Positions 957-60,300 are shown, counted from the whole stretch's first letter. The stretch is DNA of 62,580 nucleotides, filler included, from 11 parts of 11 records of this genome joined end to end with filler, not necessarily neighbours in it, one strand, 5' to 3'. Notes: generated by a model from the sequence alone, not told the origin. A program made the numbers and translations.

Positions 957-2703
957 ATGGAGGCGGTGGTCATCGACCTCACGCTGTCATCCGACGACGA
1001 GCCGAGCCCGCCGCCGGCCAAGCGGATCCGGGTCGACCCGCCGCCGATCGAGAAGCCCGAGTGCGGCTGCGGCGAGCGGCCACTGGACGCGATCTGCTAC
1101 TTCGACTGCTGCAACCACAGCAGCTGCAGGGCGTGCCTGGCCCGGGCGGTGGATGCCGCGATCGGGACGGGGGCCGAGCCGCGCTGCCCCGGGTGCCAGG
1201 CCGCGCTGGGGCAGCACGAGCTGCAGCAGCTGGACGACCCGGCCCGGCTGGAGCGACTGGAGCGGGCCCAGCTGCAGGCGGCGCTACCGACGGACATGCT
1301 CGAGTGCCCCAAGTGCGCGGCCAGGTGGGAGGCCTCCACCGAGCGGCCCGAGCCGCCCAAGGCGTTTGACGGGTGCGCGCTCAATCCGGAGGCGGCGGCC
1401 CACTTTGCAGCGCACCGGTTCCGTTGCCCGGCGTGCAAAGTCGACTTCTGCCGCGAGTGCAAGGCCAGCCCGTACCACCTGGGCAAGACGTGCGCCGCCG
1501 CGTCGGCCAAGAGCTGCCGTTTCTGTGGGGATCCGGCCACGGCATGGCACGGCGCGGGAGATCTGTGCGGCGCAAAGGAGTGAGGCAGCGGCGTGGGCAG
1601 GGCTCTGAACGATGCCAGGTGCAAACTGAAGGCGCAGCAGTGCTGCCTGCGGGTGCTCGCGTGCGGGCATCCATGCGGGGGGGTCAAGGGCGAGGCCAAC
1701 TGCCTGCCGTGCCTACAGTGCAGCGGGGGGCGCCACCGGCAGTTCTCGGATGATTTTTGCAACATCTGCTTCGTGGAAGCGCTGGGCGCGGCCCCGGCGG
1801 TGGAGCTCGGGTGCGGGCACATCTTCCACAGAGACTGCCTGCTCAAGCGGCTGAAGGCAACTGCCTAGCCAGCCGCTGGCTTAGCGGGGGCAGGCCGGGT
1901 TCACGGGGCTTCGAATCGCTTTCGGTGCAGCTGTGGGAGGGTTGGGTATAAACTTACTGGGTGGCAGGCTTTATGTGCTGCACGCTGTGTGCGCAGCCGG
2001 TGAAGCACCCGGCGCTTACCAAAGGTCCGGGTTCGGGCCACGGCTAGGGGCGAGCCGGCGGGCCAGCGCTGCAGCCGTGGCAAAAGCTCGAGGCCAAAGT
2101 AACGTCCGCGGCGCTAGCCAGGCTCAAAGCCGACTCAGAGAGAGAAAGGAAAGCGTTGCCGGCTGAGCCTGAGGCGGAGGCCCTCCGGCGATATTGTTAC
2201 TTCCAATGCCACAAGTGCAAGGAGCCATACTTTGGGGGAGGGGCCCAGTGCAACGCACAGAACGTGGCGGAGCAAGACAGAGAGAAGCTGGTTGGCCGAG
2301 CTGGGCAAGGGCTCCGGCTGAGCGCCGGGCGCAGGTGTGCACAGGGTGCAGTGCTAGGATGCTGGGGAAGCCTGCGGCGAGCTGCCAGGTGCATGGGACT
2401 GAGTACATTGAGTTCAAGTGCCGCTGGTGCTGCTCGGTCCCTGCCCAGGCCGGGGCTAGCTGACCGGCGGCCAGACTGCGGCGTTCTTCTGTTTCGGCAC
2501 CACGCATTTCTGCGACAGATGCCACAAGGTGGCGGATCGTTGGCTGTCGGGTAAGCGGTGCGCAGGAGTGGGACAAGAAGCCAGGGTGTGTGAAGGTCAA
2601 GCCGTGTACGTGCGGGCTGCAGCATCCGCCCAATGGAAAGGATATCAAGTCCGAGCATTGCTTTGGCTGCTCTTTGTGTCGTTCGGCCGCCGCCGCGACC
2701 TAG
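957..2703 (+). CDS. E3 ubiquitin ligase: N-terminal SIM, RING and IBR-like zinc fingers, and a MYCBP2/Highwire-type RING plus tandem-cysteine (RCR) module; 7 mini-introns
   Basis: Spliced product contains DDFCNICFVEALGAAPAVELGCGHIFH, RYCYFQCHKCKEPYFGGGAQC, CQVHGTEYIEFKCRWCCS, AAFFCFGTTHFCDRCH and HPPNG..FGCSLCR, all hallmark motifs of the MYCBP2 C-terminus. Confidence 0.85.
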
Positions 2704-2832
2704 CCGAAACCTAACTAACCTATAACTAACCGACACCTAACTGGTCGAAACACTCGCTAAACGCTCGCTGCTATTCTTCAGACAGTCGGGTTTGAAGTTT
2801 TTAGACGTTGTTTTAATGAATTTACATGCAAA

Positions 2833-3846: not shown

Positions 3847-4050
3847 CCGCCAAAGAAAAACCGTGTTGTGTTGTCTCTGAATGCTCCTCCAAGCAAAAAC
3901 ACACCGGCCTCGAAGCTTGTGCGCGGCGGTGCATAAAACTTGGACCTGATGCTCATTATCTTGCGTATGGCGCCAGAATTTGCTCGCGAGCAGGCGACAC
4001 CGGACAGAACCGAGAAAAAGGGGGAGGACGAGCGACGAGGAGGGCAAAAA

Positions 4051-4125
4051 TGGGGGGACAGCCGGGAATCGAACCCAGGACCTCTCGCACCCGAAGCGAG
4101 AATCATACCACTAGACCACTATCCT
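4051..4125 (-). tRNA. trnP-CGG: tRNA-Pro (anticodon CGG)
   Basis: Minus strand reads AGGATAG TG GTCTAGTGGTATGATT CTCGC TTCGGGT GCGAG AGGTC CTGGG TTCGATT CCCGG CTGTCCC C CCA, followed by a TTTTT Pol III terminator. Confidence 0.95.
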
Positions 4126-6013: not shown

Positions 6014-6113
6014 NNNNNNNNNNNNNNNNNNNNNNNNNNNNNNNNNNNNNNNNNNNNTTAATTAATTAANNNNNNNNNNNNNNNNNNNNNNNNNNNNNNN
6101 NNNNNNNNNNNNN
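6014..6113. other. Artificial contig spacer; identical spacers at 10081-10180, 14458-14557, 24878-24977, 28478-28577, 33323-33422, 37239-37338, 45202-45301, 52608-52707 and 57157-57256
   Basis: 44 N + TTAATTAATTAA (stops in all frames) + 44 N, ten times. Confidence 0.99.
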
Positions 6114-10080: not shown

Positions 10081-10180
10081 NNNNNNNNNNNNNNNNNNNN
10101 NNNNNNNNNNNNNNNNNNNNNNNNTTAATTAATTAANNNNNNNNNNNNNNNNNNNNNNNNNNNNNNNNNNNNNNNNNNNN

Positions 10181-10757: not shown

Positions 10758-12379
10758 ATGCTGCGGCTGCTGCGGCCTCGACAAGTCACCGCTCACAGGC
10801 TGAGCCGGCAGCTACATGTGGCCGTGGGCACCCAGCTGTCTGCTGGCTGGTCATCCCAGCATCAGTGGTTGTGCCGCGTGCTGCCCTCGAGGATGAGCCT
10901 ACTACGAGCAGTGCCGGTCCCACAGCCAGGGCCAACCCCGGAGACAAAGTTGGCCGTGCCCTTGACCTGGGGGCACCTGCTCCGCATATCCAAGCGGCTG
11001 CTCATGTACATTGCCCTCGGGCTGCCCATACTCGTGTTCGCGCTCCCGTTCTGGGCCCTGAGGCAGTCCAAGGCGATGGCGCCCGGGGTGGAGAGGTTGG
11101 CCTGGGATTACCTCGTCTGGTGCATGGAGACGCTTGGGCCCACCTTCATCAAGTACGGCCAGTGGGCCTCCACTCGGCGCGACCTCTTCCCGGCGCTGCT
11201 GATAGAGAAGCTTTCCCGGCTGCAGGACGGGACCTCGGTGCACTCGTGGGCCGAGACAGAGAGGGCGCTCACTGCCGCGTTCGGCGAGGAGTGGGCCCAG
11301 ACTCTGCAGATAGAGCAGCGGCCGATCGGCTCGGGCTGCGTGGCCCAGGTCTACCAAGGCTGGACCTGTGAGCAAGACGAGGCCGCACCGACACAGGTGG
11401 CAGTCAAGCTGCTGCACCCGGGAGTGATTGAGGTCATCGCTGCGGATATGTCGCTGCTCAAAGCAGCGGCCCGCTGGCTCGAGCTGGTGCCCAGGCTGCG
11501 ATATCTTTCGATCCAGGACACGATCGGCCAATTTGAGCAGGTGATGCTGGCGCAGCTAGACTTGAGGATTGAGGCGGCTAACCTGACCAGATTCAGAGAT
11601 AATTTTGCAGATGATGGAGACTGGATTCGATTCCCACGCCCAATCCACCAAAAGTGCAGCCGCGGCGTGCTTGTAGAGAGCTTCGAGAAAGGCACTTCGA
11701 TTGCCAGAATTATCGAGACGGGTGATGCTGAGCTGCGAACCAAGGTGTGGCATCTGGGGTGCACAATGGTCTTGAATATGATATTCATGCACCGCTTTGT
11801 GCACTCTGACCTCCACCCTGGGAATGTGCTGGTGGACACTAGCGACCCAGTCAAGCCTAGGCTGATCGTGCTGGATGCTGGCCTAGTTACTGCTGTTACG
11901 GCCGAGGAGGGCCAAGGGATGGTGGAGATTGCCATCAATATGTTGAGACACAAAGGATACCAGGCGGGCTGAAGGCTCTGGGTGCTGTTCTGATAAGTGG
12001 GGGGCAGGCGGGCCAGATGATCCTGGACCACACCAAGCGGGCTGCCTGCAAAGACTCAGAAGCCTTCTGCCGTGGAGTGGAGCACATTGTCGATCACTCG
12101 TTCGACGATACCGACAAGTACTCCAGCTTTGGCAAATACATGATGCAAGTGTGCGGTCTGGCTTGCAGCCACCGAGTCAAAGTGGAGCCCACGTACCTCT
12201 CTGTCGCTCTAGCTCTCAAGACCTTAGAGGGAACCAGCATGGCGCTTGATCCTTCGCTTTCCATTATCAGTGAGGCGATCCCAGTATGTTTGAAAGCTCA
12301 GGCACAATATGCAACTGATTCCTTATACGAAGCTGTGTTTGCTAATGGGCGAATCACCTTGTATCCCAAAGACACATAG
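10758..12379 (+). CDS. ABC1/UbiB atypical kinase (ADCK2-like), probably mitochondrial; one GC-AG intron at 11964-12007
   Basis: LGPTFIKYGQWASTRRDLF, PIGSGCVAQVY, VAVKLLHP, HSDLHPGN, LDAGL; Arg-rich N-terminus MLRLLRPRQ. Confidence 0.9.
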
Positions 12380-14457: not shown

Positions 14458-14557
14458 NNNNNNNNNNNNNNNNNNNNNNNNNNNNNNNNNNNNNNNNNNN
14501 NTTAATTAATTAANNNNNNNNNNNNNNNNNNNNNNNNNNNNNNNNNNNNNNNNNNNN

Positions 14558-15843
14558 CAGTCGCTACGGTGCACGAGCCGCCTGCCCCCCCGACGGGCGG
14601 GTTGTACAAGGAGCCCCCGACGCTGCCTACTATGGGCAGTGTTGCTTCCGCTCCGCCCGAGGAACCTGAGCAGAGCACAGAGGGGCGCGAGCTCCGAATC
14701 CCGATCTTCGAGTGGTTCGGCAAGAATGTGGCCACACTAGTGATTTCCATCCTGGATCCCACATCGCGGGGCAAGGTGGCTAGAGCACTTTAGTCCGATT
14801 TTTGACCTCTCAGTTAGACCCGTCCACCCGACCGATCTCGTGGGCATAGGTGGCGTGCAGCAGCAACGGGATGTGGTGGGCAGTGGAAGCCACTCGGCAG
14901 GTGATGACGGGGAACGGGCTCGGGATTGACCGGCCGCAGGAGGGACGATGTGTAGCCGATCGGTTGCTGCGGGTTGATCACGATCAATTCGGTGATCGGT
15001 CGGCCTTTGCAGCGGTCCGTGTTTGGATTTGGGATCCACACAGCGCCAAGCGGTGGAAGAGAGCAGCTCCGCTCGCTGGAAAGCGACGCGGCCACACCTG
15101 CACAGCGCTGGATGGCAAGCTGTGGGTGGTAGGTGGTTTTACAAGTAGTAGAAGTGAGGGCCGTACGTATACCAAGTGAGGGCTACTGTGCACTGCTATC
15201 CGTTCTAGCTGCTTGTGGCAGGCCGCTGGACTCGGTGGACGTGTTTGATCCATCCAACGGGCCGGGAGGTTCGTGGACCACAGCTGCACCACTCAGCTCT
15301 GCGCGTGCCGAACACAGCTGTACAGCAGCTGACGGCAGACTGTGGGTGGCGGGCGGGAAGGACACGCTCTTCTTCAGGTGCGGCCGCATTCGCATGCTGC
15401 TCACCCGTGTGGTGCTAGCGCTCTGGACTCTGTGGAGGTGTACGACCCAAGCACCGACAAGTGGACTCCAGCTGGCAGCCTGTGCCAAGCCCGGCACGAG
15501 CACCACGGCGACGTGTCGGAGGAGGGCGTCCTCAGGCTGTGGGGCGGGTGGCCGGAGCATGGGTGAGGACGCATGTAGCAGCGTTGTATGAGTCTGTGTG
15601 TGTGTAGTGGCGCGGAGTTGGACAGCGCAGAAGTGTATGACCCAGTGAGCGGCCAGTGGACCGAAACAAAGGACGGGCTAGAGTGCACAATGAGAACCGG
15701 CAACAGATACAGACCAATCGGCTACAAAGGCAGACCTGATGCAAATGAACACCGGGTTGGGGAGCACCGGCTAGAGTGCAGTGAACAGCCATCGCGGCGC
15801 TGGCTTTGTTTGGGACGCTTTCGGTAGTACTGCAACACGCTAG
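14558..15843 (+). CDS. Kelch-repeat protein with a possible F-box-like N-terminal segment; multi-exon, 5' truncated
   Basis: RRGHTCTALDGKLWVVGG, LDSVDVFDP, ARAEHSCTAADGRLWVAGG, LDSVEVYDPSTDKW, DSAEVYDPVSGQW. Confidence 0.8.
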
Positions 15844-15883
15844 AGCACTTTGGTCCGATTTTTGACCTCTCAGCTAGACCCGT
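14779..15883 (+). repeat. 45-bp direct repeat pair (14779-14823 and 15839-15883)
   Basis: gctagagcacttt(a/g)gtccgatttttgacctctcag(t/c)tagacccgt, 43/45 identical. Confidence 0.95.
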
Positions 15884-18143: not shown

Positions 18144-21100
18144 ATGGCGGCCCTGTTCGCCGAGGGGCTCCGGCAGGCGCTCGGGCTGCTCGGGCTGGCT
18201 GACGGGCCAGTCCCGGCCGGCCCCCGCGCACGGGCCGCCCTCTGGCTGCTTGGGCTGCCGCCTGATCCGGGGCTGCTGGCCAGACTTGCCGAGGCCATCG
18301 CACAGGTGCCGGGGCGACTGATGGAGCTCAGCCCTGCGGCAGGAGCAGCCGGAGGAAGCGCTGGCCGGTGTGGATGGCTGGCGCGACTGGCGGTCCGGCC
18401 AGCCCGAGCCGGGGCCTGATTGCTGGCCGGCAGGCCCTGCCGTCAGTCGGGGGTCCGTGCGGTGCTCAGTATCTTTGGCAAGAGGTGCGAGCAGCCCGAC
18501 GAGGGGACAGACGAGGAGCTATATCTGGACCAGGCGAGGCTTGGGCCGGCCAGACCGACAGGGCGCCAGGTCGAATTCAACCGGGCGATGGCGGCCATGC
18601 TAAAGAAGCAGCGCTGGTTTGGACGGGAAGGCCGGCGCGAGAATCATCTCCGGCAGGCTGCTCTCAATGCCACCCGAGAGGTGCAGAGCCCTGGCCCAGC
18701 GCTCAGTGTTGACGGCAGCTGGAGGCTGAAGCGCTGACGAGTGCCTACGCTGAGTTCACGCAAAGCAACTGCGGCGAGCAAACCAAGGCCGTGGCTGCGA
18801 AAGTGTGAGGCTGGCTCGGGTCGTTTTGAGTACCCGCGTTTTTAGGTGCATCAGCTGCGTAGGATGAAAGATCAGCGGTATGGTGTGCAGCCGGATGCTC
18901 TGAGCCGAATGCAGGTTGGTCGGGCTAGCTGGTCTGGTGGTTGCCCTGGGTACTGCGGTGCCAGTGTCGCGGCTGCAATCGGACTCAGGGCCAGGCAGGT
19001 TCCCGCACCAGCCATGCGACCGCGATTGGAGGAAGAGATGCGCAGCTTACAGCAAATGTTCACGCTCATTGACACTGGTGGGGACGGCGATGTGGATGTT
19101 GAGGACTTCATTCGCGCGGTCGAGATGGTAGGGATGCATTGGGGGGGTGAAGATGAGCTGCAGCATGCAATTAGAGTCGTCAGTGGCAGCGATCAGGCCT
19201 GCTTTGCTGACTTCGTGCTCATGTGCTGTGATTCGCCACAACTTATTACCCGTCGGTTTGTGCCACGGATGAGATACTTTCTCGACGCCTTTTCACTGTT
19301 TGATGAGGATGGGGAGGGTGAAATCTCGGCTGATGAGCTTCGTGCAGCAATTTCTAAGCTTTTTGGCTGGAGGCCGACCAGGTGAAACAGCTATTCATCC
19401 GGGGTAGAGCAATGGACAGGTACGAATCCGAAAAGATGGTGATGTCAGTCGATGCGGATGGCTCTGGAATCATAGAGTTCAACGAGTTTGTGGTGACGAG
19501 CTACGGCTAGAGTTTATGATTGTCGAACTAGGTGATGATGACAACCACCAAATCAGCTGATCTAGTCAAAATCAAAGAAGAGATTGAAGCGGTGCCCCAG
19601 TGATTTGGGCTCTGTCAGCGTTGGGTAGGTTTATGCAATGTTCATGATGTTTGATCTCGATCCAAAGGGTGCACTTGCTTGCTTCGAGTTTGGCTTTCTT
19701 GAGTTCTGTGCTGTGATGCGCTCAACCGGCCACCGAGCCACTGATGAAGATCTGGCTGCCATGTTTGCTGAGATGGACAATGACGGTAAGGGTCAAGTAT
19801 GCTTCGCTGAATTTGCAGAGATTATGACTGGTGAGCAGACTGAGCTGAGCGACACCATACGGATTCGGTAAACCCTGCTTGTGGTGTCAGCATTAGGGGT
19901 TTGTCTGGCCACAGGTACACCGAACTTGAATCATTCTTTGCTTTGATTGATGAGGATGGTGGAGGATCTGTTGACTTCAATGAGATGGCCAAGATTCTGT
20001 TGCTGCTGGGAAAGCCGCCATCTGGAGAGGACAAGCACCATCTGCTCGTGGCAATCGATGTCGCTCAGGATGAAGAAGTGGGATTTGACCGGTTTGTCAG
20101 ACTTTTAGCTGGAAACTCACTTGAGGTGCACTCCCGGCTGCAGTCTGGAAAGTGATTCGCTGCAGGTGCAACGTCGATTGACCCATGCACTCACTGAGTT
20201 TCGAGAAGCGTTCCTCATCTTTGACGCTGACGGGGGTGGGGTTGTGAATGAGGCAGAATTTGTGACCGCGATGGAGCATGTTTTTGGCTGCACCAACCGG
20301 AGCGCCTCACGCAGAATGATACGTCAATTTGATAAGAATGGGAACGGAGAAATTGACTTTGCTGAGTTTGTGGGGATGATGGCCTTTGACTCGGGGGATG
20401 GGCTTGGACTCAATTCATTACTCAAGAGCCAGCTCGTTGGGTACAGGGAGGCATTCAATTTGTTTGACCGGGACAACGATGGGAACGTGACTGCTGATGA
20501 TCTGATTGCCACATTTAAACTCCTTGCAATAAAGGTGGACGATGACACGGTAGTCTCAATGGTCGAGTCTGCTGATACCGATGGGTCTGGAGAGTTGCAG
20601 TTTCCTGAGTTTGTGCTAGTACTCTCTGCAGCAAGGAATCAGACTGGTGGCAAGGTGAGGCTGGACAAGATCTCTGAGCTCAGAGAGATGTGGGCGTACT
20701 TCGATCAAGATGGTTCTGGATCAATTACTGAGGATGAGATCGCTGTGGTGCTCATCAGCCTTGGAACTGACCCGGAGGCTGCCCCAGTGACTGCGCATGA
20801 TATGATGCTCGCAGCAGATGCTGGCGGAGACGGCCAGATCGAGTTTGAGGAGTTTGTTAAAATCATGTGTCTTGCCCGTAAAGAAGACGATCCTGAGGAT
20901 GACCCTTTGTTTGGGTCTGCTGCAAATGTCGATGTGCTTGAGTTGTTGATGGCACAGCTTGGACCACCAACAGCCCCTAAAGTTGCAGTTCCTGTCTCTA
21001 AGGCTACTCGGCTGCTGAAAAAGAAACAGAACAAAGAGCAGGAGCTAAGCCCAGTCGAGACGCGGACCAAGGAACTAGAGCTGATGCGTACGCAAATTGC

Positions 21101-23556
21101 CAAAGCTTATCTAGACGGAGAGCATGGCACTGCGGCACAAATGGAGCACCGGACAGTAAAGGCGGAGCAAATGCTCACTGCAATGGCCAACAAGGTGCTG
21201 AACGTGCTCAAGGAGCACCTGCAACTGGAGCACTTCCGGAAGCTACCACCAAAGGAAGCAAACGCGCTGTGCTGTCATGTCAAGTTGCATAAGCACCCCC
21301 CTGGGAAAATCTTGGTGCACGAAGGCCGGCCTGTTGCTGGATGGAACTTTCTGTTAAAGGGGAATGCAATCATGCGCAAGATGCCTACTAATGACCGAAG
21401 AGAGGACACGCGCAGGGTTGCAATGTGGATCGACCTCAAGGATCCTTCTGACCAGCTGCTGTATGCGCTTCAGCGAGCAATGTCTTCACTACCATCCAAG
21501 GATAAGGTCGGGTTGAGCAGTAATGCCAAGGTGATGCTGGAGAAGCTGGATGAGTCTCAGCTTGGGTGCAGCACATGGATCAGACAGGCGAAGCAGACCT
21601 TGAGTAACGACATGGACAACCTCCACCGCTTCCCATGGCTAATCAAGCAAGGCCGGATCCATGTGATATCGCTGCAGGAGCTTGCCATACTGGTTCCAGC
21701 TGTTCGAAAAGAGTACCTTTTGGTCAAAGCATGCACACAACTGTCCTCCACTGGCGACAAGAGGATGCAGATTTACGAAGCATCCAGCGTATTGACCACA
21801 CTCAAGATGCTAGCTGGTGCACTCGAGCGAGGGCTCAACTGCCTTGAACCAGTGTTCACACCAGAGTCGGTGGTGGATGAGGACGCACTGTTGCAGCTAG
21901 AGCGGTTCAACCATCAGGATCTGGGTAGAGCACTACTCGAGCTCCAGCCAAATCGCGGATTTGGTGAAATTGTCTTTCAGCCCACAAAACTGGGCAATGA
22001 TGAGATCTGCAGCCCAGTATCAGTGGCCTGTTCTCCTGAGACCGAGGTAATTTGCCTCTATGTGAGCAGGGATGCCTTTCGTTTATCGATGGTAATCGAG
22101 GAAGCCTCCTTTCTTAGCACCATGCCAGCTTTCCGTGAGTTGCAGCTGGTCCAACTCCAGAAGCTTTGCTTACATGTAGAGAAGCGTGAGTTGGCTTTTG
22201 GACAGACATTCATGTTAGCTGGAGCACCTGCCAACTCCATTTTCGTAGTGAAGAGCGGCACCATTGACATTAGGGTGTACCTGGAGCAGTCAGGCGAGAA
22301 GCCAGAGGCAGATACTTCTGCCTCATCTAGTGAGACCAAGATGCACTCGGTGGCAATTGTGGGCAAGGGTGATATCTTGAATGAGACCAAAGATGTCGAT
22401 GGTCGGAAGGTGTACCTCTACAACGCAGTGTGCCTCCAAAACGGCTCTGTCGTTTTTCAGATAGACCGACGTGCAATGAGCAAGCTAGTAAACCCTTTAA
22501 CTGGCAAACCATTCGAACTCGTGCAAGATATTGCCAAGTTGACCCATAGGACTGAGCGGGCCCGCCGGCTCCAGAGCGCCACTGACACAGCGGCTGCTCT
22601 GCTAGATGCTGACCACCAGATGGCCAAGGATGCGCTGCAGCAGATGGTCTTGGCAGGATGTTCGTCAAGTGGTCGAGCCCGATCGTGCCTGCCGCCAGTG
22701 GAGGATCACACCATCAAGGGCACAATGGAGCGGCGGAGAGAACTGGTTTGCTCGAGGGCCAGCCAGGTCATTGTTGACTCGCGGGCCAGGCACACCCAGT
22801 GCTTCAAGACGGAACTAGACAGTTCCAAAGCCCGCCGCCACCTGTAGAGGTGTCTGCAGATGCATGCAGACTTAAGCCTGGGGCCAGATCCCTGCCGAGG
22901 TGCTGTCAATGTCGCGACGGCACCATGCCAAGCACCTCATGGCTACAATGGGTAGCCTGACTTCCCAGCTGTCAGCCAAGGCACACAAGCGCCGATCTGA
23001 AGCTTTTGAACGAACACAGCGATTGGCCATGTCGAACTATCTGCTCCAGCCTGAAGAGCTCCGGGTGGCTTGATTACTTGCTAGAAATGAGCCCGTGGCA
23101 GGCCTGGCTCGAGACTGGTAGCTCGCTAGCTCCACCACCGTCGAATCCAGTTGCTGTGATCCGGGAGCGTCGGCCCCGTCTGCCCTGTAGCACTGCAGTT
23201 TGGGAGAATTCAATCCGCTGCCATAGTGGTCAGTTGGCACACAGACTGACGTGGCCAATGACCGGTGACTGTGTGCCAGCCGTCAGCCCGCTGCAGCCAT
23301 CGCCAGCTGTACCCCAGTGCATTCAGGCAAGCTACCAACCAGAACCTGGTTGACTTGCTTAGCAGAATATCAAGAGCCTTGCAAACATCCAGCAGCCCCG
23401 CAGTCTGCCTCAGCCAAGGCCAGTGCGTTGGTGTCCACAACTAACAAGGAACACCCCATTGTCGTGTGGATGCAGCTCTATCGTCGAGCATTCTATCTGC
23501 TGCCCACCGCGACCACGGCGGATCCAGGTGGTCCAAAGAAATTCAATCATGGCTAA
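18144..23556 (+). CDS. Giant multi-EF-hand protein with cyclic-nucleotide-binding-like domains; at least 10 introns in the 5' part; 3' end uncertain
   Basis: About 13 EF loops (DTGGDGD, DEDGEGE, DADGSG, DNDGKG, DEDGGGS, DADGGG, DKNGNGE, DRDNDGN, DTDGSGE, DQDGSGS, DAGGDGQ and others); cNMP-like ILVHEGRPVAGWNFLLKG..GFGE and FMLAGAPANSIFVVKSG. Confidence 0.8.
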
Positions 23557-23888
23557 CATTTGATCCTGGCAGGCGGTGATTGCACGGGTAGATCCAGCCA
23601 GAGCTAACACAAAAACGCCCAAGCTGATCAACGAGGGCCAAGTTTGCACACCTTATCAGCGCCGTCTACTTGGGAAACGATATCACAATCACAGACCAAC
23701 AAAGCTCAGGTAGGAACCGCAGCATCATGGACACGGTCACTAGAAGCAATGTGCTCTTATTGAGCCTTAAAGCCCCGACTTTCTAATAAATGAATGTACT
23801 TATAAATATGTTTTTAATGTATTGATAGCTACTTGTACTTCTACGTATGTGTATGAATATAATTGATATCGATTCTACCATTTGGTTA

Positions 23889-25195: not shown

Positions 25196-28100
25196 TCACT
25201 TGAGCGGTTTGAGGGTGGCGGTGCAGTGCGGCATCAGGCTAGTCACTAGCCCTCTCCCGATTCCCGGCACTGCCTGTAACTCCTCCATCTCCGCAAACCT
25301 GCCATCAACAGTAAGTAGACACCCAAAGGATCAAGAAAATAGCGAATACCGGCCGTGCTGCTCGCGCCAGGCCACAATGGCCTTCGCCTTGGCTCTGCCA
25401 ATCTTGGGGAGCGCGGTCAGCTCTTCGCAGCTGGCAGCATTCAGGTCCACCAATGGATTCTTGACCTGATCTGGTTGATTATTTGCTGTGTTGGTCGTCA
25501 GGGGCAAAAGTGGCGGCCGGCTCAAGGGCTCTGTCCTAAGACCGAGCGACAGCCCAGCCATCTGACTCACCAGCTCATCATCGACTGACCCTCCTGTCAT
25601 CTCACCCTCCAGCCCATCGCTGTCAATAGACAAGCCAGCAGCCATCTGACTCGCAAGCCCGTCGTCGACTGACAACCTCGCCCAGTCGAGTTTGGCCTCG
25701 AGTGCTTGGTGCACGAGCTCGACCGCCTCAGCCAGCGCGGGCTTGGCACTAGCCGTGACCAGCACCACACTCGTTCCGTCTATATGGGTCTGCCTCTTGG
25801 CAGGCACGGTCACCTTGGTGCCAGTGCTTGTTTGTATGGCCTGGAGAGTATGGCCTTGCTTGCCAACCAGCTGCGCAAGCTGCCGTCGACAACACGGGAC
25901 ACATTCTAACAGCTCGCCGTTTGGTGAGTCCCAGAGGGCGACCGCCGACAGCAGAAGGTCGCGCGAAGCGTAGTTCTCCATGAGTGCCACAAGGTCAGGC
26001 GAGCGGGACGAGAGCAGCGTGGGCGCGTGGCCCAAGATTACAAGACCAAACCTCGCCCTAGTGAGGGCCACGTTGAGCCGCCTAAAGTCCTTGAGGAAAC
26101 CAATTGCCGACTCCAGATTGGATCGGACACATGAGATCACAACCCCATCCCACTCGCTGCCCTGGCACCCGTCTACAGTGCTTGCCCTCACCCCGTCCGG
26201 CAACCCCAGCCCCTCAATTGCCCTGACCTGCCCTGAATAAAAGCTCACCACAGCCACCGATCGCAGCCCCGATATCCGCATCTCGCTTGCCACACGTTTG
26301 GCCATTGCTGCTTCCTTATGATTGACCAGCGAGGAGCCCGCTTTTGCTTCGTTCCCATCCACGTGAACGAATAGACAAGACCGCTCCTGGAGAGCAGTAG
26401 TCCAACTGTGAGTAGTATTAGTCTCTGTAGCTATCCACGGCGCGGTCCTGGTGCGGATGGAGTCATGATCGCGGAGCCTGCCCTACCATCAGCCGAATCA
26501 TGATAGTATTAATAATGCCTTGCTTCGTAGAACCGAGTTGACGGGAACTTGGATATGCCATGTGCCATACGGAACTGCTTGTCTAGCAGTATAGAGGGGG
26601 CTCCACAGTCGGCCAGCCGCGCCATCAGAGACCGATCGAGTCCTGCAATCAATCAATGGTATTCGAATCGTTGTCATCACCGGCTGCTTTGGCGTACTGT
26701 GACCGGACCATTGGCGGCAGTTGCATGGGGTCGCCCACCAGCATAATCCTTGCCTGCGGATGAACTGTGAGTCAACAATTCTTGGTATTAATGAGCACCT
26801 CAGGGTCAAGCAGTGGCATCGGCAGCAGAATCTCCGGCTCCATCGCCTGGTTACGTTAATCATGGTATAGTATAGTCAATTCAAGCGTGCCTGGCCCGCC
26901 TCGTCTATGATCAGCCTATCAGCCACCAGCGCCCCGTCCAGACCTGTGATCACTTAGAGATCATATTGTGATTACCATCACCTGGGCGTGCCAGCACCGA
27001 AAGTGTCCCAAATATCACCCGAGCATGACCCAGCAGACCAGCCACCACCTGTTGCACGTCTAAGTCCAGTCACAGCTGACGCCGGCACCGACGTGGACCC
27101 GTGCTTTTCCACCGTCAGCGAGATCCGCTCCACCAGCCTGTGTCAATGTGTCATTTCTACATTAGGAACATGGCGCTAGTGTGTCACCGCTGCACGGCCT
27201 CTGCCAGCCCCTCGCTCCGTTTCTCTTCCACCAGCCAGGCACGGATGTTCTCCAGTGCAGCGCGGTGGGCCCCAATCTCCCCAACGAGCGCCTTCTTGCT
27301 CAGCAGCCGCAACAAATCCGCCACCTGCGCCTCAATAACTCATCTCCCCCCAGTCGTCAGACGACGCTTACCCGCTTGAGGGCCGCGTACACCCTTGACC
27401 GGGCCTTCGTCTGCACCTCCACTAGCTGCGAGACCAGCCGAGATGCCTCTTCACCAGCCTCTGCCGGCGAGACACACCGGTGTGCACAGTGCCGGCAGAT
27501 CTCCCGGTGCTGATCCTTGCTGATTGCTTTACTCTTCCACCACCGCTGCAGCGACCGCTTGGCGCTCTCCGCTCTCTCAAACTTACCCTCGTCTGTTGCT
27601 GGATCCAGCACCGCCGCGGTCAACCCAGTGACCGAGGCGTCGGCCATCTTTTCAGCCGCCCGTGTGGCATTGGCCAAGCCAACCCTCAGCTGGGGCATCC
27701 AATGGTCCAGCGAGATCCGCTCGAGATCCGCCGATTGGGGCTGAGAATGCTCGCTCGAAACGCGCAGCGCTCGCGGCTCAACACTGTGCTTGGCGCAGCT
27801 CTCTAAATACCTAGTGGCTAATTGATTTACCGCTTGGTTGCTCGGCGCCGCCACAATAACGGTGCTGTCCGGGCTGACCGCCCTGAGTGTTGTCAGTAGC
27901 GCCGTCAGCGCTGTCGATTTGCCAGTGCCAGGAGGCCCGTGCACCAGGCACACCCCAGGCCCAGCAGCCAGCCCCCAACCGACCGCTTTGGCCTGTGCGG
28001 CCTCCAATGAACAGTCTGTTGCTTGCTGCAAGGGGATCGGCTCAGAGTGGGGCTGCGTGAGCCGACCGCTGGCCAGCTGCGACGCCACAGACAGCGCCTG

Positions 28101-31800: not shown

Positions 31801-32952
31801 CCTCCGAGCAAATTAGTCATGGTCTGCAAGGCTGACTGCTGCAGCTCCTCGTTGGTGGATTTCATCGTGAGAACTACAAGTGGTGAAATCACTCCAGCAT
31901 TCCGGATCCTGGCCTGATACATCCTCACTGCAGTCAGCCTTGAGAGCGCTAGGCAGCAGTGCAGCTGGGTGATCTCATCATCGCCTGGCTCACAGGTTTC
32001 TTTACAGATCTCAATCAGAGGCGCCAAGCACTCCTCCTGCACAAACTTGCCAGCCCAGGTCTCCTTTGTGAGCACATTCGCTGCGCAAACACTGCCCCAC
32101 CGACGCATGATCGGATCCTGCTTGCTCAGCACCCAGCAGATGGTCCGCATCACGCCGTGCTTTACCATCTTCCCCAAGAGGCTGCCGACTGCTGTCACTT
32201 TCGCCAGCGTCTCGGCCGCCTTCTTCTGTATGTCCAGCGCAGTATCAGTATCCTTGATCAATGAGAGCACGTAGGGCACCCCCCCGCCATTGACCATCTT
32301 TTCTTTGACCTGTGTGCCTGGTCAGCCTGTCAGCTAGTATAACCATCCACCTCGTCATCTTCGACAAGGTTGCTTATACCAGTAATCGCAGGCAGTCGCA
32401 CCTGCCCAGACCGTCACTGTGCCGCCAGTGCTGCTGGGCAGCATGCACACTGCCCCGCTAGTCAGTTACGACACCACCTGCGACAGCTCGTCGTCGGCCT
32501 CGCTCACTGTCACCAACTGTAGCAGCTTGTCCAGCCCACCTTCCCCCCAGCCGTCAGCGCACCCCCACAGACGCACACCATCTTCCTGGATTCGGCTCCG
32601 GTTCGCCGGTAGCTCTGCCAGCCCTGCGACCGCCCTGGCACAATTGCGCAGAATTGTCGTGTTGGTCTGCGTCGACCGGATGAGCGACAGGATCGGCTCG
32701 AGCGCTCCCTGAGATATCAGCTCCGCCTGCCGACCGCTGGTGAGCCCGGCTCCCGAGCGCGGGCAGCGCCTGGTACTTCTCCTGCTGCGATAGCTTGGTG
32801 AGCACCTCCACAGACTTGGACTGGGCAATCGGCTCGCCCGCCCAAGCGTTGGCCACGTGCTTCTGAATCGTGTACTCATCCGGGAAGATCTCGCCCCCAG
32901 AGGCATCGGCCCCGTTCTGCTGCTCCTCCTCGTTCCGCCGGAAGAAACTCAT
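28878..32952 (-). CDS. Armadillo-repeat (Vac8-like) protein with long C-terminal coiled coil; 4 or more introns at the 5' end then a 3.4-kb exon
   Basis: Many ARM repeats (AAALANLA, ATRALANLA, AYAIANLA, GGLDPII); ATG at 32952 (MSFFRR). Confidence 0.85.
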
Positions 32953-37426: not shown

Positions 37427-38992
37427 TCAATCTTCAGCCTTTGACCACTTCCTGGACCACTTGGCAGGCCCTGTGGCCCTTGGCCGGGCCCAAACTCCAG
37501 ACCTGGATACTGTGCCACTGATTGAGTTGTCTTGCACCGACAGTGACTCTAGCGTGGTGAGCGAGCAGAGCTCCACAGGCAAGGTTCCAGACATGCTGTT
37601 ACTAAACACGTTCAGGGTCTCGAGAACTGTGAGCGGGCTCAGGACACTTGGTATTGTGCTAGAAAATCGGTTTGAAAAGAAGTTGAGGTGAAGCAATCTT
37701 GTCAACGAACCCAGCTCACCTACCAAAAGAGCTCAGCTCTCCTCACATTTACAACCCAGCTCACTCGGAATAGTGCCTGAAAGCGAGTTTGCGTCCAGTT
37801 GAACCACGTAAGCGGCAGTGAGTGCCGACCAAGCACTGGGTGCGGTCCCACTCAGAGAATTCAATGAGAAGGTGAACTCATCAAGTGCCGTGAGCGAGAG
37901 CAGCTCCGGAGGGATGGTGCCGCTGATTGTTGTGTTGGAGATCCTCAGCCGCGGGCAGAGAGTGAGTGACGAGAGTGTGCTCGGTATTGTCCCTGAGAGT
38001 CCAGGGACTGTAATAACGTAGAACATATAATCTGAGATAGCAGTCAAAGAGCCGAGCTCACCTGCCCAAAGAGCTCAGCTCTCCTCGCATCTACAAGCCA
38101 CACACTCGGCAGTGTTCCTGAAAGCGAGTTCTGCAGCAGAGTGAAGATCTGCAGGGAGGTATGAGCTGAGCCCATAAAGCTTGGTATGGTGCCACTGTAT
38201 CTGGAACGCCAGATACGGAGACTTTGGAGTTGGGTGAGTGCGCTCAGTGTGGCTGGGAGAGTGCCACTGATCTCATTGGAAGCGACAGTGAGTTGTTGCA
38301 GCAGCGTCAGTGAGCCGAGAATTGGAGGGAGGGTGCCACTGAGCGGATTTGATTCTAGTTTCAATTGCAAGATCGAAGTCCAGCTCCCAAGCTGAGACGG
38401 TACCGTGCCTGACATGGAGTTTGACTGCACCGTGAAGGATTTCATTGTTGTGCAGCTGCTAACTGTATCAGAGATAGTTCCACTTATGCGATTGCCAGTA
38501 AAAGCTACTTGCGACAAACTAGTCAGTAAAGCCATTTCGCTCGGGAGTGTCCCAGACAGCGAGTTGCCTTCAAACCACAAGGACACAAGTTGAGTCAGTG
38601 ATCCGAGCGAACTCGGAATCGAGCCAGTTAGCCCGTTCGAATTGACCAGGCTGCCCATCCTGTCAAGCCCCGATTAGGCGGGCGCGACCCACATTGAGCG
38701 CGGCACGTCACTGTCGCACCGGACCAATGGCTCCTCACCCGAGTTTGTCCAGTCACAATAGTCTCCAGAGCACCAGTTGGTGTTAACAGTCCAGCTGGAC
38801 CCGCCTGCAGACAGCGGCTCTCAGATTATAAATAAACGGAGGGCAATAACCGGTGGCGGTGTAAAACTCCACCAGAGCATCGCAGTACGTCGGACCATCA
38901 GTCGGGGCGGAGCTCGGGGCCGAGCATGGGCACCCCAGCGCCACCGGCAACAGAATGCCGAGAAGAGTCTGGAGCCTAGGCATGGCGGGCAT
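37427..38992 (-). CDS. Secreted LRR protein with plant-type 24-aa repeats; multi-exon
   Basis: Signal peptide MPAMPRLQTLLGILLPVALG; repeated NxLSGTLPSxLGSLTxL. Confidence 0.88.
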
Positions 38993-45301: not shown

Positions 45302-47706
45302 CCTGTCGCTGTAACCACTACGCGCAGTGGCATCTGTTTGGCGGCGAGGGGCGGGCGTCTCAGCTGCAAGCGCAAGTGGATCAGTTTAGGCGGCGGGCTT
45401 TGGTGGCGGAAGCGCAGGTGGAGGCACTCTCAGCACGATGCGAGATAGAGCGGGCGAGGGCGGACAGCAAACCTATCGCTCCGAACAGGCTCCGAAGACG
45501 TAAAGACGTCGACGGCAACCCGGTTACAACCCGGTTTGCTCCTGTAAACGGGACTTGATGTCAGCCTGCGCATCCGTGTCGAGCGCCTCGAGAGCGAGCT
45601 CTCCGCCGCCTGCTTGCGCTGGTTTGACCACCACCACCACTCGCACCATCGAGAACAAGTGGCGAAGTGGCGTGGGCTAGCGCTCGCAGAAGAGGACGGG
45701 AGCTGGCACCTTTCCGTTAAAATAGCCTGGCTCAGATGTCGCATGCTTGGCGGTGCAGCCGGTGTGGGGCCGAGGGCGGGACACCGATCGGCCGGCGACG
45801 GCACCTCGCCCAGTGCCTGCCGGCCGCAGCGCCGGAGCAGCTAGCTAACATTGCCCACAGCCTCCGCCGGCCCGACACCCGGGCACTCGCCGCCCGGCTG
45901 GCAGAGGCCGTGGCCCTCGAAGGCAGCGGCGCGGTGCGGCCATGGGTGGCCAGACTCTCACGGTGAGCTGGCAGGGGTGCCCGGACGCTAGGGCGCTGCG
46001 GAATATGAAGCTGCTGTCGTCGCTCCCCGAGAGTTGGGTCAGCGACCAGCTGGTGCCCGCACTGGCAGCTGGCCCGGAGCCGGAGGGGCAGGCCAGCCCG
46101 GACGCGCTGCACCCGGACTTGCCTGTGGCTTCGCTGCTGTGGAGTCTGATCGAGATGACCCCAGCGGCCAGCCCGCGGATCGAGACTGCCCGCCGAGCCG
46201 TGGCCAGTAAGCAGGCCGCCAACGGTGCGACTGCCGGCGGCCGGCGGTCACTGTGTGAGCAGGGCTTCGGCCGCTGATGGAAGGGGCTGAGCTGGCGATG
46301 CGACGGGCGGCGCTGACCAGCACACTGGCTGCTGTGGCGGGAGATGGCGTGGTGGAACTCGTGACTCGCGAGCTGGTGGTAGGATCTGCAGAGGGCAGGA
46401 CCGTGAGGGAGGGTGCAGGTGAACAGGGCAACACGGCTGGATGCCTCGCTGGTGCAGGCGCTGCAGCTGTGCACGGAGATGCTCGCAGCCGACCAGATTG
46501 TAATCAAGAGCCACGACAACGGATTCTTTGCAAACTGGCTGCAGGTTAACTCTTCACTCATTGATCACTTTTATTAATCGGTTTCGGTTTAATCATGTGC
46601 CGTTTGAGCCGCTGGCAGGTGTTGGATGTGCTAGTACTGATAGATCCGAGCATGCCAGTCTCGGTAGACTGGACGAGCACAGGCGACGAAAAGGACTTCA
46701 CCTACAACAACAACGAGGCGGAGGAGTCTAATCTGTGGGACTGCTTCTTTGCCCCGATCTCGCCGATCTCGCCCACACCAGCGGCCAAGCCAGGGCAGGT
46801 GTTTGTCTCCAAGTCCAGGTGATCCGACAGCAAGCAGAGCCTGATTGGCGGCAGGATGAATCCGTTGTTTTACTCGTGTTACCGTAGGCTGTTCTTCGAT
46901 TGCGCCTACAGCAGAGCCCAGCGCACCGCCTACCACCAGGCATGTTTGATAGCGGGCCCGCGCCCAATTAATATTGAGACGGGCAGGCGTGGACGCGCGC
47001 GGTCAAGCTCACCGACCGTCGAGTGCTGCAGGTCATGCCATTTTGGCGTGGACTCTGGGCTCACGAGGAAGTGGCAGAGGGTCCAAGAGCACAGGGCTGC
47101 AATGGCAGGGAGGCATCGAATAGCTGTGCACAAGCGCGTGCAGTGCGGCGCGGGTGCGGCGGTGGCCTGACTGAGGGCGGCAGCACGCCTGGGGTGGTCG
47201 ACAACCAGTCGAATTACGTGATGCCTAGCATGGACGATTACGTCGAGCGGTGCCTATCTGGCCGCGTTATTGCTGTTATATATAGCGGGTGTAGCACGAG
47301 GCAAGTAGTGGCCGCAGCGCCAGAGCCGGCAGTAATCTACCTGGCAACGGATGACATTGACGCGCCAGACGCATTCCGAGCGGTGCAGGCCCGGGAGAAG
47401 GCCTGCTTGATAGCATGATAGGCGTTTGGAGAAATGGTTGTGGTGCGCGATGATGTCAAGAGGACATGCGGGGGGCTGCAAGAGAATGGGCGCATGAATG
47501 AGGTGCGACACCAGGCGGCTGTTGGTGGATATTGATCTTGGCGCAAGGTGCACATGATTTCCGGGAATGCTGGTGAGCAAGAGGCGGTGGATGTGTTGGT
47601 GGACGTGCACTCAATGGCATTGTGTAGTGAGTTGGTGCATATCGATAGCAACGTGAGTACAGCGGTGGCGATTATCAATCCAGAAATAGTCTCGCATCAT
47701 GTTTAA
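45302..47706 (+). CDS. NodZ/GT23-like alpha-fucosyltransferase domain, probably with a long N-terminal helical region; multi-exon, 5' truncated
   Basis: IVIKSHDNGFFANWLQ|VLD, NLWDCFFAPI, IAVHKR, VIYLATDD, DVLVDVHSMALCSELVHIDSNVSTAVAIINP. Confidence 0.65.
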
Positions 47707-50703: not shown

Positions 50704-50888
50704 TGTCGGCCCGGTTCTAAGGTGGTGAACCCTCCAGAATTTCTCCTGGATTTTAATAAGGAACCTGGTACGATTGTACGAGTAGATCTTGCAGTGCCGA
50801 CGGGGTGGGGCGGCTGGCTGCGCTGACCTCGCGCCGGCTGGTCTGACCGCTGCTGCCCGGCCAGCCTCCCGGCCTGCGCGCGCTGTCC

Positions 50889-52607: not shown

Positions 52608-52707
52608 NNNNNNNNNNNNNNNNNNNNNNNNNNNNNNNNNNNNNNNNNNNNTTAATTAATTAANNNNNNNNNNNNNNNNNNNNNNNNNNNNNNNNNNNNN
52701 NNNNNNN

Positions 52708-57035: not shown

Positions 57036-57309
57036 CAAAAGCTCAAACTATTTAAAATTTTATCATTTGATTGGTGCACAATTTAATGCAGGTGCTACAG
57101 ACCTACAGTAGTAAATAATGAAATAAATGAATTCCATTTTAATGCGTGATTAAAAGNNNNNNNNNNNNNNNNNNNNNNNNNNNNNNNNNNNNNNNNNNNN
57201 TTAATTAATTAANNNNNNNNNNNNNNNNNNNNNNNNNNNNNNNNNNNNNNNNNNNNAGCACGGTCCCGCTTGCGCTGGCCTCGCGGCAGTGTGCCTTTGG
57301 CTCGGCAAG

Positions 57310-60300
57310 ATGGAGCCGACGTGCCAGCCGTGCCACCAGCCGGTAGCCTGCAGCGAGATCAAGTCCGTCTTCACCAACCAGATCCTGGCTTCGGCCCTCG
57401 CCGCGCGCCAGGCCGAGAATATCGGCCGCTGGTGCGATTGGCTGGTGTGCCCGCCCATCGCCGGGCGCTCGACCGAGCAGCAGGCGGCTGGGCGCACGGC
57501 TGCGGCTGATCCGGGCCGGGCAGTTGTCTGATCTGAAGCAGCGGAGCGCCAAGCGGGTGTGCGGGCACGTGTTCAAGGCCGGCGAGATCGCGTACAACTG
57601 CCTCACCTGCCAGAACGACAGCACCTGCGTCATATGCTACGACTGCTTTAAAAACGGTGGTCCAGCTGCCCGGCTGCGTCCAGCAGCGCTGCAGGCGACC
57701 ACGAGGGGCACGAATACTTTTTCCACAAGACCGGCCCCGGCGGCTGTTGCGACTGCGGCGACCCTGAGGCCTGGGACCCTGCCGGTGCCGGGCAGCTCGG
57801 CTGGACCTGAGCCTGGCCCAGGCTTCTGCCGGTTGCACACGGGGTGCGCTGTGCAGACCGAGCTCCCGCTGCCGGTGCGCGAGCGGGCGGTCCAGACTGT
57901 GCAGGCTGTGGTCTCACACGTGAGCAGATCGATCCACATGGCCCAAGCGGCCTCGGCCGGCGCCCGTGCGTGGCACAGCCGGCTGGGTTGATGGGTGTGT
58001 GCAGCGCCCGGTGCGGGCCCGACCGAGGAGTTCGTGCTCTTCCTGCACGCTGACGAGATGCACTCATTCGAGGTGGCTGCACCCGGTGCATCCGAACCGG
58101 CTGGCAGGAGGTAGCTCGGGTGCTGCTCCAAGTGGCCTCCGAGATCAACACGGACCAACTGGCCAGTCAGCTCGAGAGCCAGGGCGAGGCGGTGGTCAGG
58201 CGTGGGCCGCGTGAAACCTGCCAACAGCTGCACGAGCAGATCAGCTCGGCCGCCACTGCGAGCTCTGTGCCGTTGATGACCAGCGTGCACTCCAGCACCA
58301 TGATACAAAACGAGCAATTGTGCGTTGAGCTGCTCGAGTGGCTATCACAGCTGGTGACCTACTCGGACGTGTTTGGCAGAATCGTTGCTCAAACACTCAA
58401 CTGCGAGGACGACCACGCGCCGCATGCACAGGCGCGCAGAGATCCGGCTCAGAGCAACCGGCTAGATGCCTGGATAAGCTGCGACTGGCTGCTCCGCCAG
58501 AAATTTTGTGACTCGCTCCATCAAATTTACATGCAGCTGATTCCCGAGCCAGAGTTCAAGGCTGTTTTTGCGGAGGCCTTTCTCAGATGCTACTCTGATT
58601 TGTCGAGCAAGTTCATCCAGGGCAGAGGCAGCAGTGAGAACTCAATCTTCAAACTCACTGTACAGCTTTTCACAGTGCCGAGCTTGGTGCCTCAGCTTGT
58701 CATTGATCAGGATATGTTACAAATCATCTTAGGCTGCATCAGCGCTGCAATTTCGTCAGCACTTGACATGTCCACGATGGTTGTGAATGCCGAACACGCC
58801 ATCATTCGGTATTCTCGGTATGCCTACTTGTTCAACGATTTAAGGTATGCGTTATCAATGCCAGGAGTGGCTCGGCATGTGACGTGTGGCGATTCAAGGC
58901 TGCTCACGAGTTGGCTGCAGATGCTTGCGTTTGTGCAGTTGATGGACCCGAACAGACACAAGAAAGATGCCCATGTAGAATACGAAAGCGAGTCCTGGCT
59001 GCATGCCTTTGACTTGAGCATCAAGCTCACCCCAATCCAGGCGTCGATAGTGGACGGCTTCACCGAAGTTTGCCGAGACCTGCCGCACGACCAGAAGTGC
59101 CAGAATGCCCACTCTGTTGTGTCCATGTGCTGCAATGTCATCCATTCCTGGGCAACTGCGCAGAAGCTTCCTACCACAGAATTAAACTCTCCTCTTGGTG
59201 CCGCCTCGGTGATTGATGTCAATGTACTCGAGAAGCCTGTCTCGTTTCATCTGCCTTTGCACCGATTCCTGTCCCTGCTGCTCCTCAACTGTATTACAAA
59301 ACTCAAGATCGAACCCGCAGAGTTTTTGAGACTCAAATACCTTCCTTCGTCCTTTGTTGCATTTCTGATGGAATGGCCGCTCCAAGCCATGGTGGTAGTT
59401 GCACAGACGAAGATTGGAATGTGGAGACGCAACGGACATACAATACTCAACCAAGCCATAAACTACCAGCACAGTGCTGTCGCCGCCCACATGTGTGATT
59501 TGGATTTGCCGCTGATTCAGTTTGGGGCGTCGACTCTGCCGGCTGGAATGTTTCTCACCACTGTTCTTCATAGGTTTGGACTGTTTAACTGGTGGTGGAA
59601 ATGCAGTGGCGAATCTTCAAAGCTTGAGGTAGATATGGCTACCGAGTGTCTTGCCACATTGATTGTGATTTTTTCTGAATTATATTGGTATGATGCTGGG
59701 TTGGGCTTTCTTGAGAGGGAGCTTGTGCACAAGCTGCTGGTGGGACCCTGTACTCATTCCAAATTGCGTGATTGTGTGCTCTCCTTTGGCAGCAAGAAAG
59801 AGACAGATTCACCTTCATCAGAAGAGTTTGATCAGCTCGTATCTGAAATTGCGATCTTTCGTACACCCACCAAGGTCTCTCAAGGCAAATATGAGCTCCG
59901 AGATAGTCATGCGGTGAAATATGACCCTTATTTCTTTCACCTCACCAGAGAGCAGCATCAAGTTGCGCTTGACAACCTGGCACGAGTCCGAAGCAAGCAG
60001 CCGTCAAACCCATCGCGCAGAGATGGCACCCAGCTGCCGCACCTCGCAAAGCTGCCTAAAGCAATGCATGGGATGGCTGCGACACTGCTTAGCGTGGAGA
60101 TTGCAGAAATGCTGTGGTGTCCGATCAGAGATTCCAAGGATGTTGATAGATGCTCGCATGAACTCTTGCAAGCTGCATTATACTTGCTCTTGTTGTGTGT
60201 TTCTTGTATTCGAGAGGATACGGTGACGTCTCAGAAACGTAGCAGTTTCATAGCTGCACTAGAACTGGACCGGAACGGTGATTCGATAGTATCGAGGCTG

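Follow-up and report, generated by a model that had tools for sequence, protein, structure and literature searches.

The genes of the window, by which we mean the whole stretch of 62,580 bases analysed here, are interrupted by introns that are mostly 35-47 nucleotides (nt) long, and a sizeable minority of these begin with GC in place of GT. We regard them as probably the ordinary U2-type mini-introns of an uncultured marine protist with a compact and moderately GC-rich genome. In such a system the introns would have become confined to a tight length range of about 36-47 nt, and would be recognized by a symmetric junction consensus, namely (C)AG^G(T/C)G at the 5' end and a G-rich tract followed by CAG^G(T/C) at the 3' end (here and below the caret marks the junction), along with a YTRAY-like branch motif and the intron length itself. 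The splicing machinery would further tolerate a C at donor position +2 in about 13-25% of the introns, with the exon-side AG nearly obligatory in GC-donor introns by way of compensation; the U2-type mechanism, the compensation and a link to base composition are what we infer from the whole. The window consists of 11 contigs, each of 3.5-10.3 kb, which were joined artificially, such that gene order across the gaps is meaningless. Each of the ten gaps is made of 44 N, TTAATTAATTAA and another 44 N, an all-frame stop linker. This make-up suggests a fragmentary bin or an assembly from a single cell. The GC content per contig is 0.535-0.625, that is, moderately GC-rich.

Direct evidence comes from marine metatranscriptome RNA, which was compared with one N-free contig of the window, 14558-24877, the uncovered parts of which are uninformative. 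Between 5 and 11% of the words sampled from 15000-24800 are present in four such runs from two studies, and the RNA contigs skip three short segments of 37, 39 and 45 nt (Table 1), confirming that the mini-introns are real. At one of these, 23327-23365, the ambiguous letters allow the cuts CA-AG, AG-GC, GG-CA and GC-AG, among which GC-AG is the sole known splice type. An earlier note on this DNA had named six introns as needing a GC donor, and none of the six lies on the contig that was compared with RNA.

Homology bears out three of those six. In the gene for an ABC1/ADCK2-like kinase, removal of 11964-12007 yields MLRHKGYQ^AGQMILDH, which is gap-free against 10 of the 10 homologues shown (for example, MLRHQGYA^AGEMMLDR), while the sole nearby in-frame GT model leaves a gap of 4 residues against them. 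For the helicase gene, eight introns were removed and the resulting protein was aligned with 10 of the 150 homologues listed, all ten of them full-length; the eight junctions proved gap-free. Two of the eight have GC donors: at 26847, just after motif II, the only GT alternatives would take out 12 residues including DEAGQ, and at 26478 there is no GT within the preceding 27 bases; GT models for the two introns would remove 5-12 conserved residues. The same alignment corrected the gene parser described below, whose call of a 34-nt GC-AG intron at 27049 would add 2 residues that 10/10 homologues lack. Four GC-AG introns are hence verified, 23327 by RNA, and 11964, 26847 and 26478 by homology. 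Two more of the six, 1857 and 57484, are predicted by the parse and have no in-frame GT within 36 nt. In the case of 57484 the one ground for the prediction is the coding potential of a 58-residue first exon. At 1857 the cysteine/histidine spacing looks like that of a MYCBP2-type RING finger. The last of the six had been placed at 32726, one letter off from the 32727 of the parse, and has a GT alternative. The accompanying statement that GC follows in five of the six is true as written.

The remaining introns were predicted with a gene parser based on dynamic programming, which scores codons by log-odds and splice sites by donor and acceptor weight matrices, with a bonus for a branch motif and a term for length, and was retrained in three rounds. 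Donor position +2 was left unscored, with GT, GC, GA and GG all permitted, and the introns in genes scoring at least 25 then started with GT in 58 cases, GC in 19, GA in 2 and GG in 2. Among the raw candidates G-C outnumbers G-A or G-G by a factor of about 1.6, from which some 3 false GC calls rather than 19 are to be expected. It is conceivable in principle that the GC donors are modelling errors and the true donors nearby GT sites: an in-frame GT lies within 18 nt of 9 of the parser's 19-20 GC donors, all four GA/GG calls likewise have an in-frame GT alternative, 27049 proved to be a GT intron by homology, and 32727 has its GT alternative. However, a nearby GT is not where the donor was found at any of the four verified introns, the GT reading failing at 23327 on RNA, at 11964 on the 4-residue gap and at 26847 and 26478 on the loss of conserved motifs, and the control donors GA and GG were chosen just twice each, so that we consider wholesale mis-modelling very improbable.

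Three intron sets were carried forward. Set A comprises the introns as parsed; in set B nine GC calls were swapped for GT and the three RNA-verified introns added (69 GT and 11 GC); an extended set (n = 85; 74 GT and 11 GC) enlarges set B by three introns from a Kelch-like gene with a low score and by two from a leucine-rich repeat (LRR) gene. These bracket the GC-AG share between 11/85 (13%) and 20/80 (25%). The suggestion of a spliceosome relaxed at position +2 is thereby upheld, with four GC-AG introns verified and 11-20 of 80-85 predicted, against a usual share of about 1%. The length range given by the earlier note also holds, with 70/80 introns of set B and 74/85 of the extended set falling at 35-47 nt (median 40.5, range 28-76). 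Mini-introns are present on 11/11 contigs and GC donors on 7/11. Other routes to an intron set were less useful: parsing without signal scores predicted too many introns, simple ORF-joining (open reading frame) screens gave no discrimination, a motif count against the reversed sequence was uninformative since reversal changes the dinucleotides, and the codon-usage model alone was weak, the GC content at third codon positions (GC3) ranging from 0.49 to 0.86 among genes.

The 85 introns of the extended set share a pronounced pattern at both ends. At the 5' site C occurs 40 times at -3, A 48 times at -2 and G 72 times at -1, followed by G, then T (74) or C (11), and G at +3 (56). At the 3' site G occurs 56 times at -4 and C 76 times at -3, followed by AG, then G at exon +1 (68), T (35) or C (31) at exon +2, and G at exon +3 (36). 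Both junctions thus read about CAG^G(T/C)G. From -9 to -4 of the acceptor G is the commonest base at each position (35-56 of 85) and A is rare, such that a G-rich (G/T) stretch replaces the polypyrimidine tract. A weak, predicted branch motif, YTRAY, is found in 39/85 introns where shuffled sequences would give 13, and it usually lies 10-16 nt before the 3' end. The signal matrices were trained on the parser's own output and may have been somewhat sharpened by it; the 12 verified introns show the same pattern, with a CAG acceptor in 12/12 followed by G in 11/12. An upstream AG precedes 9/11 GC introns versus 33/74 GT introns (p = 0.026), and donor positions +3 to +6 of the GC introns show no clear strengthening. 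Compensation on the exon side, which makes up for the mismatch with U1 at +2, is a known property of GC-AG introns.

The foremost alternative is that many of the introns were recently gained, and are perhaps still being gained, through insertion of short DNA with target-site duplication or through staggered-break repair, with the donor copied from the insertion site. The earlier note had advanced such copying for many donors, and direct repeats around new introns have been described for Daphnia and for introners. Because both junctions share the core AG^G(T/C), most introns here look as if flanked by a direct repeat of 3-6 nt. We scored a left match (end of the upstream exon versus end of the intron) and a right match (start of the intron versus start of the downstream exon), and took as the null a random re-pairing of the 5' and 3' junctions among introns. 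The mean repeat sum is 3.12 versus 3.05 permuted in set A, with no significant excess (p = 0.19), and 3.10 versus 2.95 in set B, a marginal difference (p = 0.045). In set B sums of at least 6 number 7 versus 4.3 expected (p = 0.11), and right matches of at least 2 number 30 versus 24.9 (p = 0.02). Past position +2 there is nothing: identity between intron and downstream exon at +3 to +12 amounts to 213 matches versus 209 permuted (p = 0.39), that on the upstream side to 222 versus 221.5 (p = 0.50), and neither side shows a decayed-repeat signal. Repeat lengths range between 0 and 12 and are distributed as re-pairing predicts, apart from a small tail; on removal of the five longest repeats, 204 matches are left versus 208.6 expected, that is, no excess at all. 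As re-pairing reproduces almost all of the junction identity, copying of donors as a general rule is not supported, and the bulk of the apparent duplications is mostly the shared splice consensus rather than target-site duplication. GT follows 24/69 GT introns in set B and 22/60 in set A, and not about half of them as had been put forward. Recent gain of many introns is in our view unlikely. Tandem duplication of an AGGT-containing exon segment was also considered and rejected: there is no excess identity beyond the consensus on either side, and the longest repeat, at 37720, has a right match of 12 and a left match of 0.

The small tail of long repeats is a different matter. Those pointed out by the earlier note are all present, with 9 nt at 11964, 7 nt at 14776 and 20126, and 12 nt at 37720. 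The intron at 37720-37764 lies in an LRR gene, the frame of which requires removal of 45 nt (...LSGTIPSELG^SLT...), restoring the repeat ...LSGTIPSELGSLT...; a 33-nt in-frame alternative (GTAAAT..TAG) would retain 4 extra residues. Its 12-nt GTGAGCTGGGTT stands at both ends of a 33-nt middle part. A paralogous intron, 38062-38105, occupies the same codon position in another LRR unit. The two have in common an exact 19-nt core (2 window matches versus 0.02 expected), and their middle parts are identical at 29/33 positions by count, but the first 11 nt of the paralogue match its next exon for 3 nt only. As the repeat of the paralogue is this short, the event at 37720 predates the duplication inside the gene. 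The repeat at 37720 is a real duplication, but a single one, and to judge by the sequences of the pair it looks to stem from one old event, either an insertion with duplication or a slippage, and to have been copied afterwards along with the LRR unit. The gene itself, at 37339-38900 on the minus strand, is of the plant type, with many ...LSGT(I/L)P... units, only two of which carry introns. In the 9-nt repeat CAGGCGGGC at 11964, 5-6 letters are consensus. Nevertheless, the repeats at 11964 (9 nt) and 37720 (12 nt) are too long for consensus and may be the footprints of individual duplication or insertion events. A gain of introns on a small scale, active now or recently, in which AG^G(T/C) sites receive a short filler (about 33-35 nt) with a target duplication of 9-12 nt and the upstream copy becomes the donor, seems doubtful to us. 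If it did take place, targets starting with GC would give rise to GC-AG introns and those starting with GT to GT-AG introns, which would explain both the correlation at position +2 and the high GC-AG share.

Several observations weigh against our preferred account of ordinary, consensus-recognized mini-introns. First, repeats of at least 7 nt number 5 versus 1.6 expected (p = 0.02; p = 0.006 for the mean, in the extended set), with the proviso that two of the five (14776 and 37720) entered the test post hoc, having been named by the earlier note. Second, donor +2 equals exon +2 in 38 introns versus 31.6 expected, this being the sole position that stands out; correspondingly, gc follows the intron in 6/11 GC introns versus 18/69 GT introns (Fisher p = 0.08, binomial p = 0.04), and the two-by-two comparison of gt and gc against GT and GC donors yields p values of 0.049 for set B and 0.095 for set A. 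Third, the GC donors do not follow the local GC content: two of the verified ones lie in AT-rich introns, and the mean intron GC in the comparison is 0.63 versus 0.61, so that a simple explanation from base composition is incomplete. Fourth, the intron set is largely predicted and contains errors: one GC call was refuted by homology, and two predicted introns of 40 and 39 nt abut at 41168-41246 (+) with no exon between them, probably representing one longer intron or a mis-model. False members of the set could dilute a true duplication signal. Finally, every RNA joint comes from a single low-depth contig (2.5-3.5) of one run, which is thin but direct.

It is hardly credible, in turn, that the introns are copies of an introner-type transposon, which would be multi-copy, bear terminal inverted repeats and obtain one splice site from the duplication. 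Introners are reported to be common in aquatic protists, and 9/85 introns fold with a z below -2, more than at shuffle level, including the GC-AG introns 23327 (z about -4) and 1857 (-2.7 to -2.9). Yet folding z has a mean of -0.3 and a median of -0.06 over the 85 introns, among which there is no general hairpin or terminal inverted repeat, and a length of 35-47 nt leaves hardly any room for inverted repeats in addition to the splice signals. The sequence families that copying would predict were sought by comparing 82 introns all against all, within these 62 kb only, and the sole related pair is that of the LRR paralogues, which scores 26 as opposed to shuffled maxima of 11-14, the other pairs staying within that range. 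Pairs scoring at least 11 number 19 versus 5.9 in mononucleotide shuffles, an excess that we ascribe to shared motifs and composition. A folding difference between GC and GT introns was dismissed as well (p = 0.98).

In its broad outline this organism has precedents. In Emiliania huxleyi, 56% of 241 manually mapped junctions are reported as GC-AG, with 9 GC junctions confirmed by RT-PCR (reverse transcription PCR; PMC4028052), and the pelagophytes Aureococcus anophagefferens and Pelagomonas calceolata are described as having about 14-17% GC-AG introns, which their authors ascribe to high GC (bioRxiv 10.1101/2024.10.30.620910). As in these reports, the GC donor occurs here in a large share of introns, 13-25%, while the acceptor stays AG. 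High GC-AG use is hence already on record for GC-rich marine protists and is not new in kind. The differences lie in length, the pelagophyte introns averaging 103-177 bp in the same report as against the cluster at 36-47 nt here, and in composition, as the window has 54-63% GC per contig and its GC donors are not confined to GC-rich introns. Animals, fungi and plants are credited with about 1-2% non-canonical introns, mostly GC-AG (PMC7789003); their U2-type GC-AG introns use the same dinucleotides and have a stronger exon-side consensus, as do the GC introns here, and the share is what sets the two apart. The introns of Amoebophrya and dinoflagellates are described in that source as mostly lacking GT-AG or GC-AG and as having inverted repeats of 8-20 nt, direct repeats and families. 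They and introners resemble the present introns in the short direct repeats over their borders, which render the exact cut ambiguous (by 2-4 letters in the three RNA joints here), but every modelled intron here is G(T/C)..AG, there is no general hairpin formation, and families were not seen. An affinity to the non-canonical introns of Amoebophrya or euglenids was accordingly rejected: G(T/C)-AG is readable in 3/3 RNA joints, GA/GG donors are rare and a general hairpin is lacking. In Daphnia, where intron gains are reported to be shown by presence/absence polymorphism (PMC4202315), the new introns (break-repair model) are flanked by short direct repeats and in this are comparable to 11964 and 37720, which have direct repeats of 9-12 nt at both borders; here, by contrast, the bulk of the junction identity is explained by consensus. 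A search by title and abstract, paywalled journals being outside its coverage, found no paper addressing telonemid nuclear introns and none describing GC-AG use combined with short introns in marine organisms.

Table 1. Introns discussed in the text and gaps between contigs of the window. X1 and X3 are RNA runs; in the rows for 14776, 20126 and 32402 the sequence named reads at both junctions.
Position	Strand	Feature	Evidence and remarks
1857..1893	+	37-nt predicted GC-AG intron, RING-type E3 ligase gene	parse; no in-frame GT alternative within 36 nt
11964..12007	+	44-nt GC-AG intron, ABC1/ADCK2-like kinase gene	9-nt direct repeat CAGGCGGGC at flanks; left match 3, right match 6
14776..14849	+	74-nt predicted GT-AG intron, AG^GTGGC	low-scoring gene model
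20126..20165	+	40-nt predicted GT-AG intron, AG^GTGCA	parse
23065..23101	+	37-nt GT-AG mini-intron	RNA contig (X1, depth 2.5) joins 23063 to 23101; GT..AG at cut +1; 2 ambiguous letters
23327..23365	+	39-nt GC-AG mini-intron	RNA contig (X1, depth 2.6) joins 23323 to 23363; 3 ambiguous letters
23528..23572	+	45-nt GT-AG mini-intron	RNA contig (X3, depth 3.5) joins 23524 to 23570; GT..AG at cut +3; 4 ambiguous letters
26478..26518	-	41-nt GC-AG intron, helicase gene, phase 2	FYEA^RLRD versus homologue YYQG^KLEN, gap-free
26643..26680	-	38-nt GT-AG intron, helicase gene, phase 1	reading frame, homologue alignment
26754..26798	-	45-nt GT-AG intron before motif III (LVGDPMQLPP), helicase gene	reading frame, homologue alignment
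26847..26890	-	44-nt GC-AG intron, helicase gene, just after motif II	DEAGQ^AMEPE versus homologue DEAGQ^AVEAE, gap-free
26944..26981	-	38-nt GT-AG intron followed by GT, helicase gene	reading frame, homologue alignment
27049..27088	-	40-nt GT-AG intron, helicase gene	40-nt GT model gap-free versus 10 homologues
27138..27187	-	50-nt GT-AG intron, helicase gene	parse, reading frame, homologue alignment
27325..27371	-	47-nt GT-AG intron, helicase gene	parse, reading frame, junction placed in homologue alignment
32402..32477	-	76-nt predicted GT-AG intron, GCAG^GTG	left match 4, right match 3
32727..32769	-	43-nt predicted GC-AG intron upstream of ARM-repeat exon	parse; in-frame 40-nt GT alternative (-7/-10) exists
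37720..37764	-	45-nt GT-AG intron, LRR gene	first 12 nt GTGAGCTGGGTT repeated exactly at start of next exon
38062..38105	-	44-nt GT-AG intron, other LRR unit, same codon position	paralogue of 37720-37764
46940..46986	+	47-nt predicted GC-AG intron followed by GC	parse; GT alternative (+4/-8, 35 nt) with poor acceptor GAG
50818..50861	-	44-nt predicted GC-AG intron	parse; no in-frame GT alternative listed
57484..57523	+	40-nt predicted GC-AG intron ahead of UBR box	parse; no in-frame GT alternative within 36 nt
6014-6113, 10081-10180, 14458-14557, 24878-24977, 28478-28577, 33323-33422, 37239-37338, 45202-45301, 52608-52707, 57157-57256		gaps	

Introns are clustered at 18144-22847, 28878-32952 and 57310-62436, and that at 20126-20165 closes a series of short introns preceding an EF-hand exon of 2.7 kb. 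In several genes 3-6 mini-introns fall in the first 5-25% of the coding sequence and are followed by intron-free exons of 2.7-4 kb; a 5' bias of the intron distribution was nonetheless rejected, the mean relative position over all complete genes being 0.50. A Pfam analysis of 181 stop-to-stop ORFs recovered ordinary eukaryotic genes, which code for SAC3/GANP, a GH39-like C-terminal domain, an ABC1 kinase, a YbaK-type editing domain, EF-hand and cNMP-binding proteins, an Upf1-like helicase with KH and HhH domains, an ARM/HEAT protein, a polyketide synthase, an LRR protein, a DEAD-box helicase, a fused-type kinase and a UBR-box ligase. The polyketide synthase, a multidomain fragment (methyltransferase, KR, ACP, KS) on the minus strand, occupies the whole contig 33423-37238; its predicted introns are few, and its GC3 is low at 0.49. 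An Rfam search of the window returned tRNA only, and a tRNA-Pro(CGG) gene, 4051-4125 (-), is situated at the upstream edge of the long SAC3/GANP ORF (2836-4110, -).

As to the source of the DNA, two relatives of the ABC1 exon stand at 57-60% identity, the remaining matches all being at or below 47%, and one of the two is a Telonema subtile transcript (EukProt), Telonema being for this one protein the nearest relative with a name. The organism may hence be telonemid-like, a lead from one gene and nothing firmer. The homologue search for the fused-type kinase found no close relative (best identity 58-60%) and no clear lineage; the names of the helicase homologues show no clear lineage either, one match being Paraphysomonas at 39% identity. 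A search for proteins homologous to a coiled-coil ORF of 1107 residues gave no match, and two metagenome scans, with the EF-hand exon and the ABC1 alignment (A1) as queries, did not find a related locus. The RNA comparison yielded two further observations. First, the RNA contigs of two runs (X1 and X2) contain 544 extra letters between the adjacent bases 24158 and 24159, where a third run (X4) shows a loose end of 255 letters; the site is the 3' end of a minus-strand ORF, 24158-24925, and the extra letters reflect either a deletion or collapse in the contig or an indel difference between strains. Second, a plus-strand transcript contig ends near 23770, and a run of 21 T stands ahead of another contig that begins at 23797, resembling the poly(A) tail of a minus-strand gene; on that reading only about 30 nt would separate the ends of the convergent genes at 23770-23797.

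Recent intron gain would be the weightier result if true, and stands as a minority reading on few introns. Irrespective of that, gene finders built on GT donors and on introns above 50-60 nt will annotate this organism wrongly, as they probably will its relatives in plankton metagenome bins. Moreover, the symmetric CAG^G(T/C)G consensus, together with the G-rich tract that accompanies it, provides data on how very short introns are recognized.

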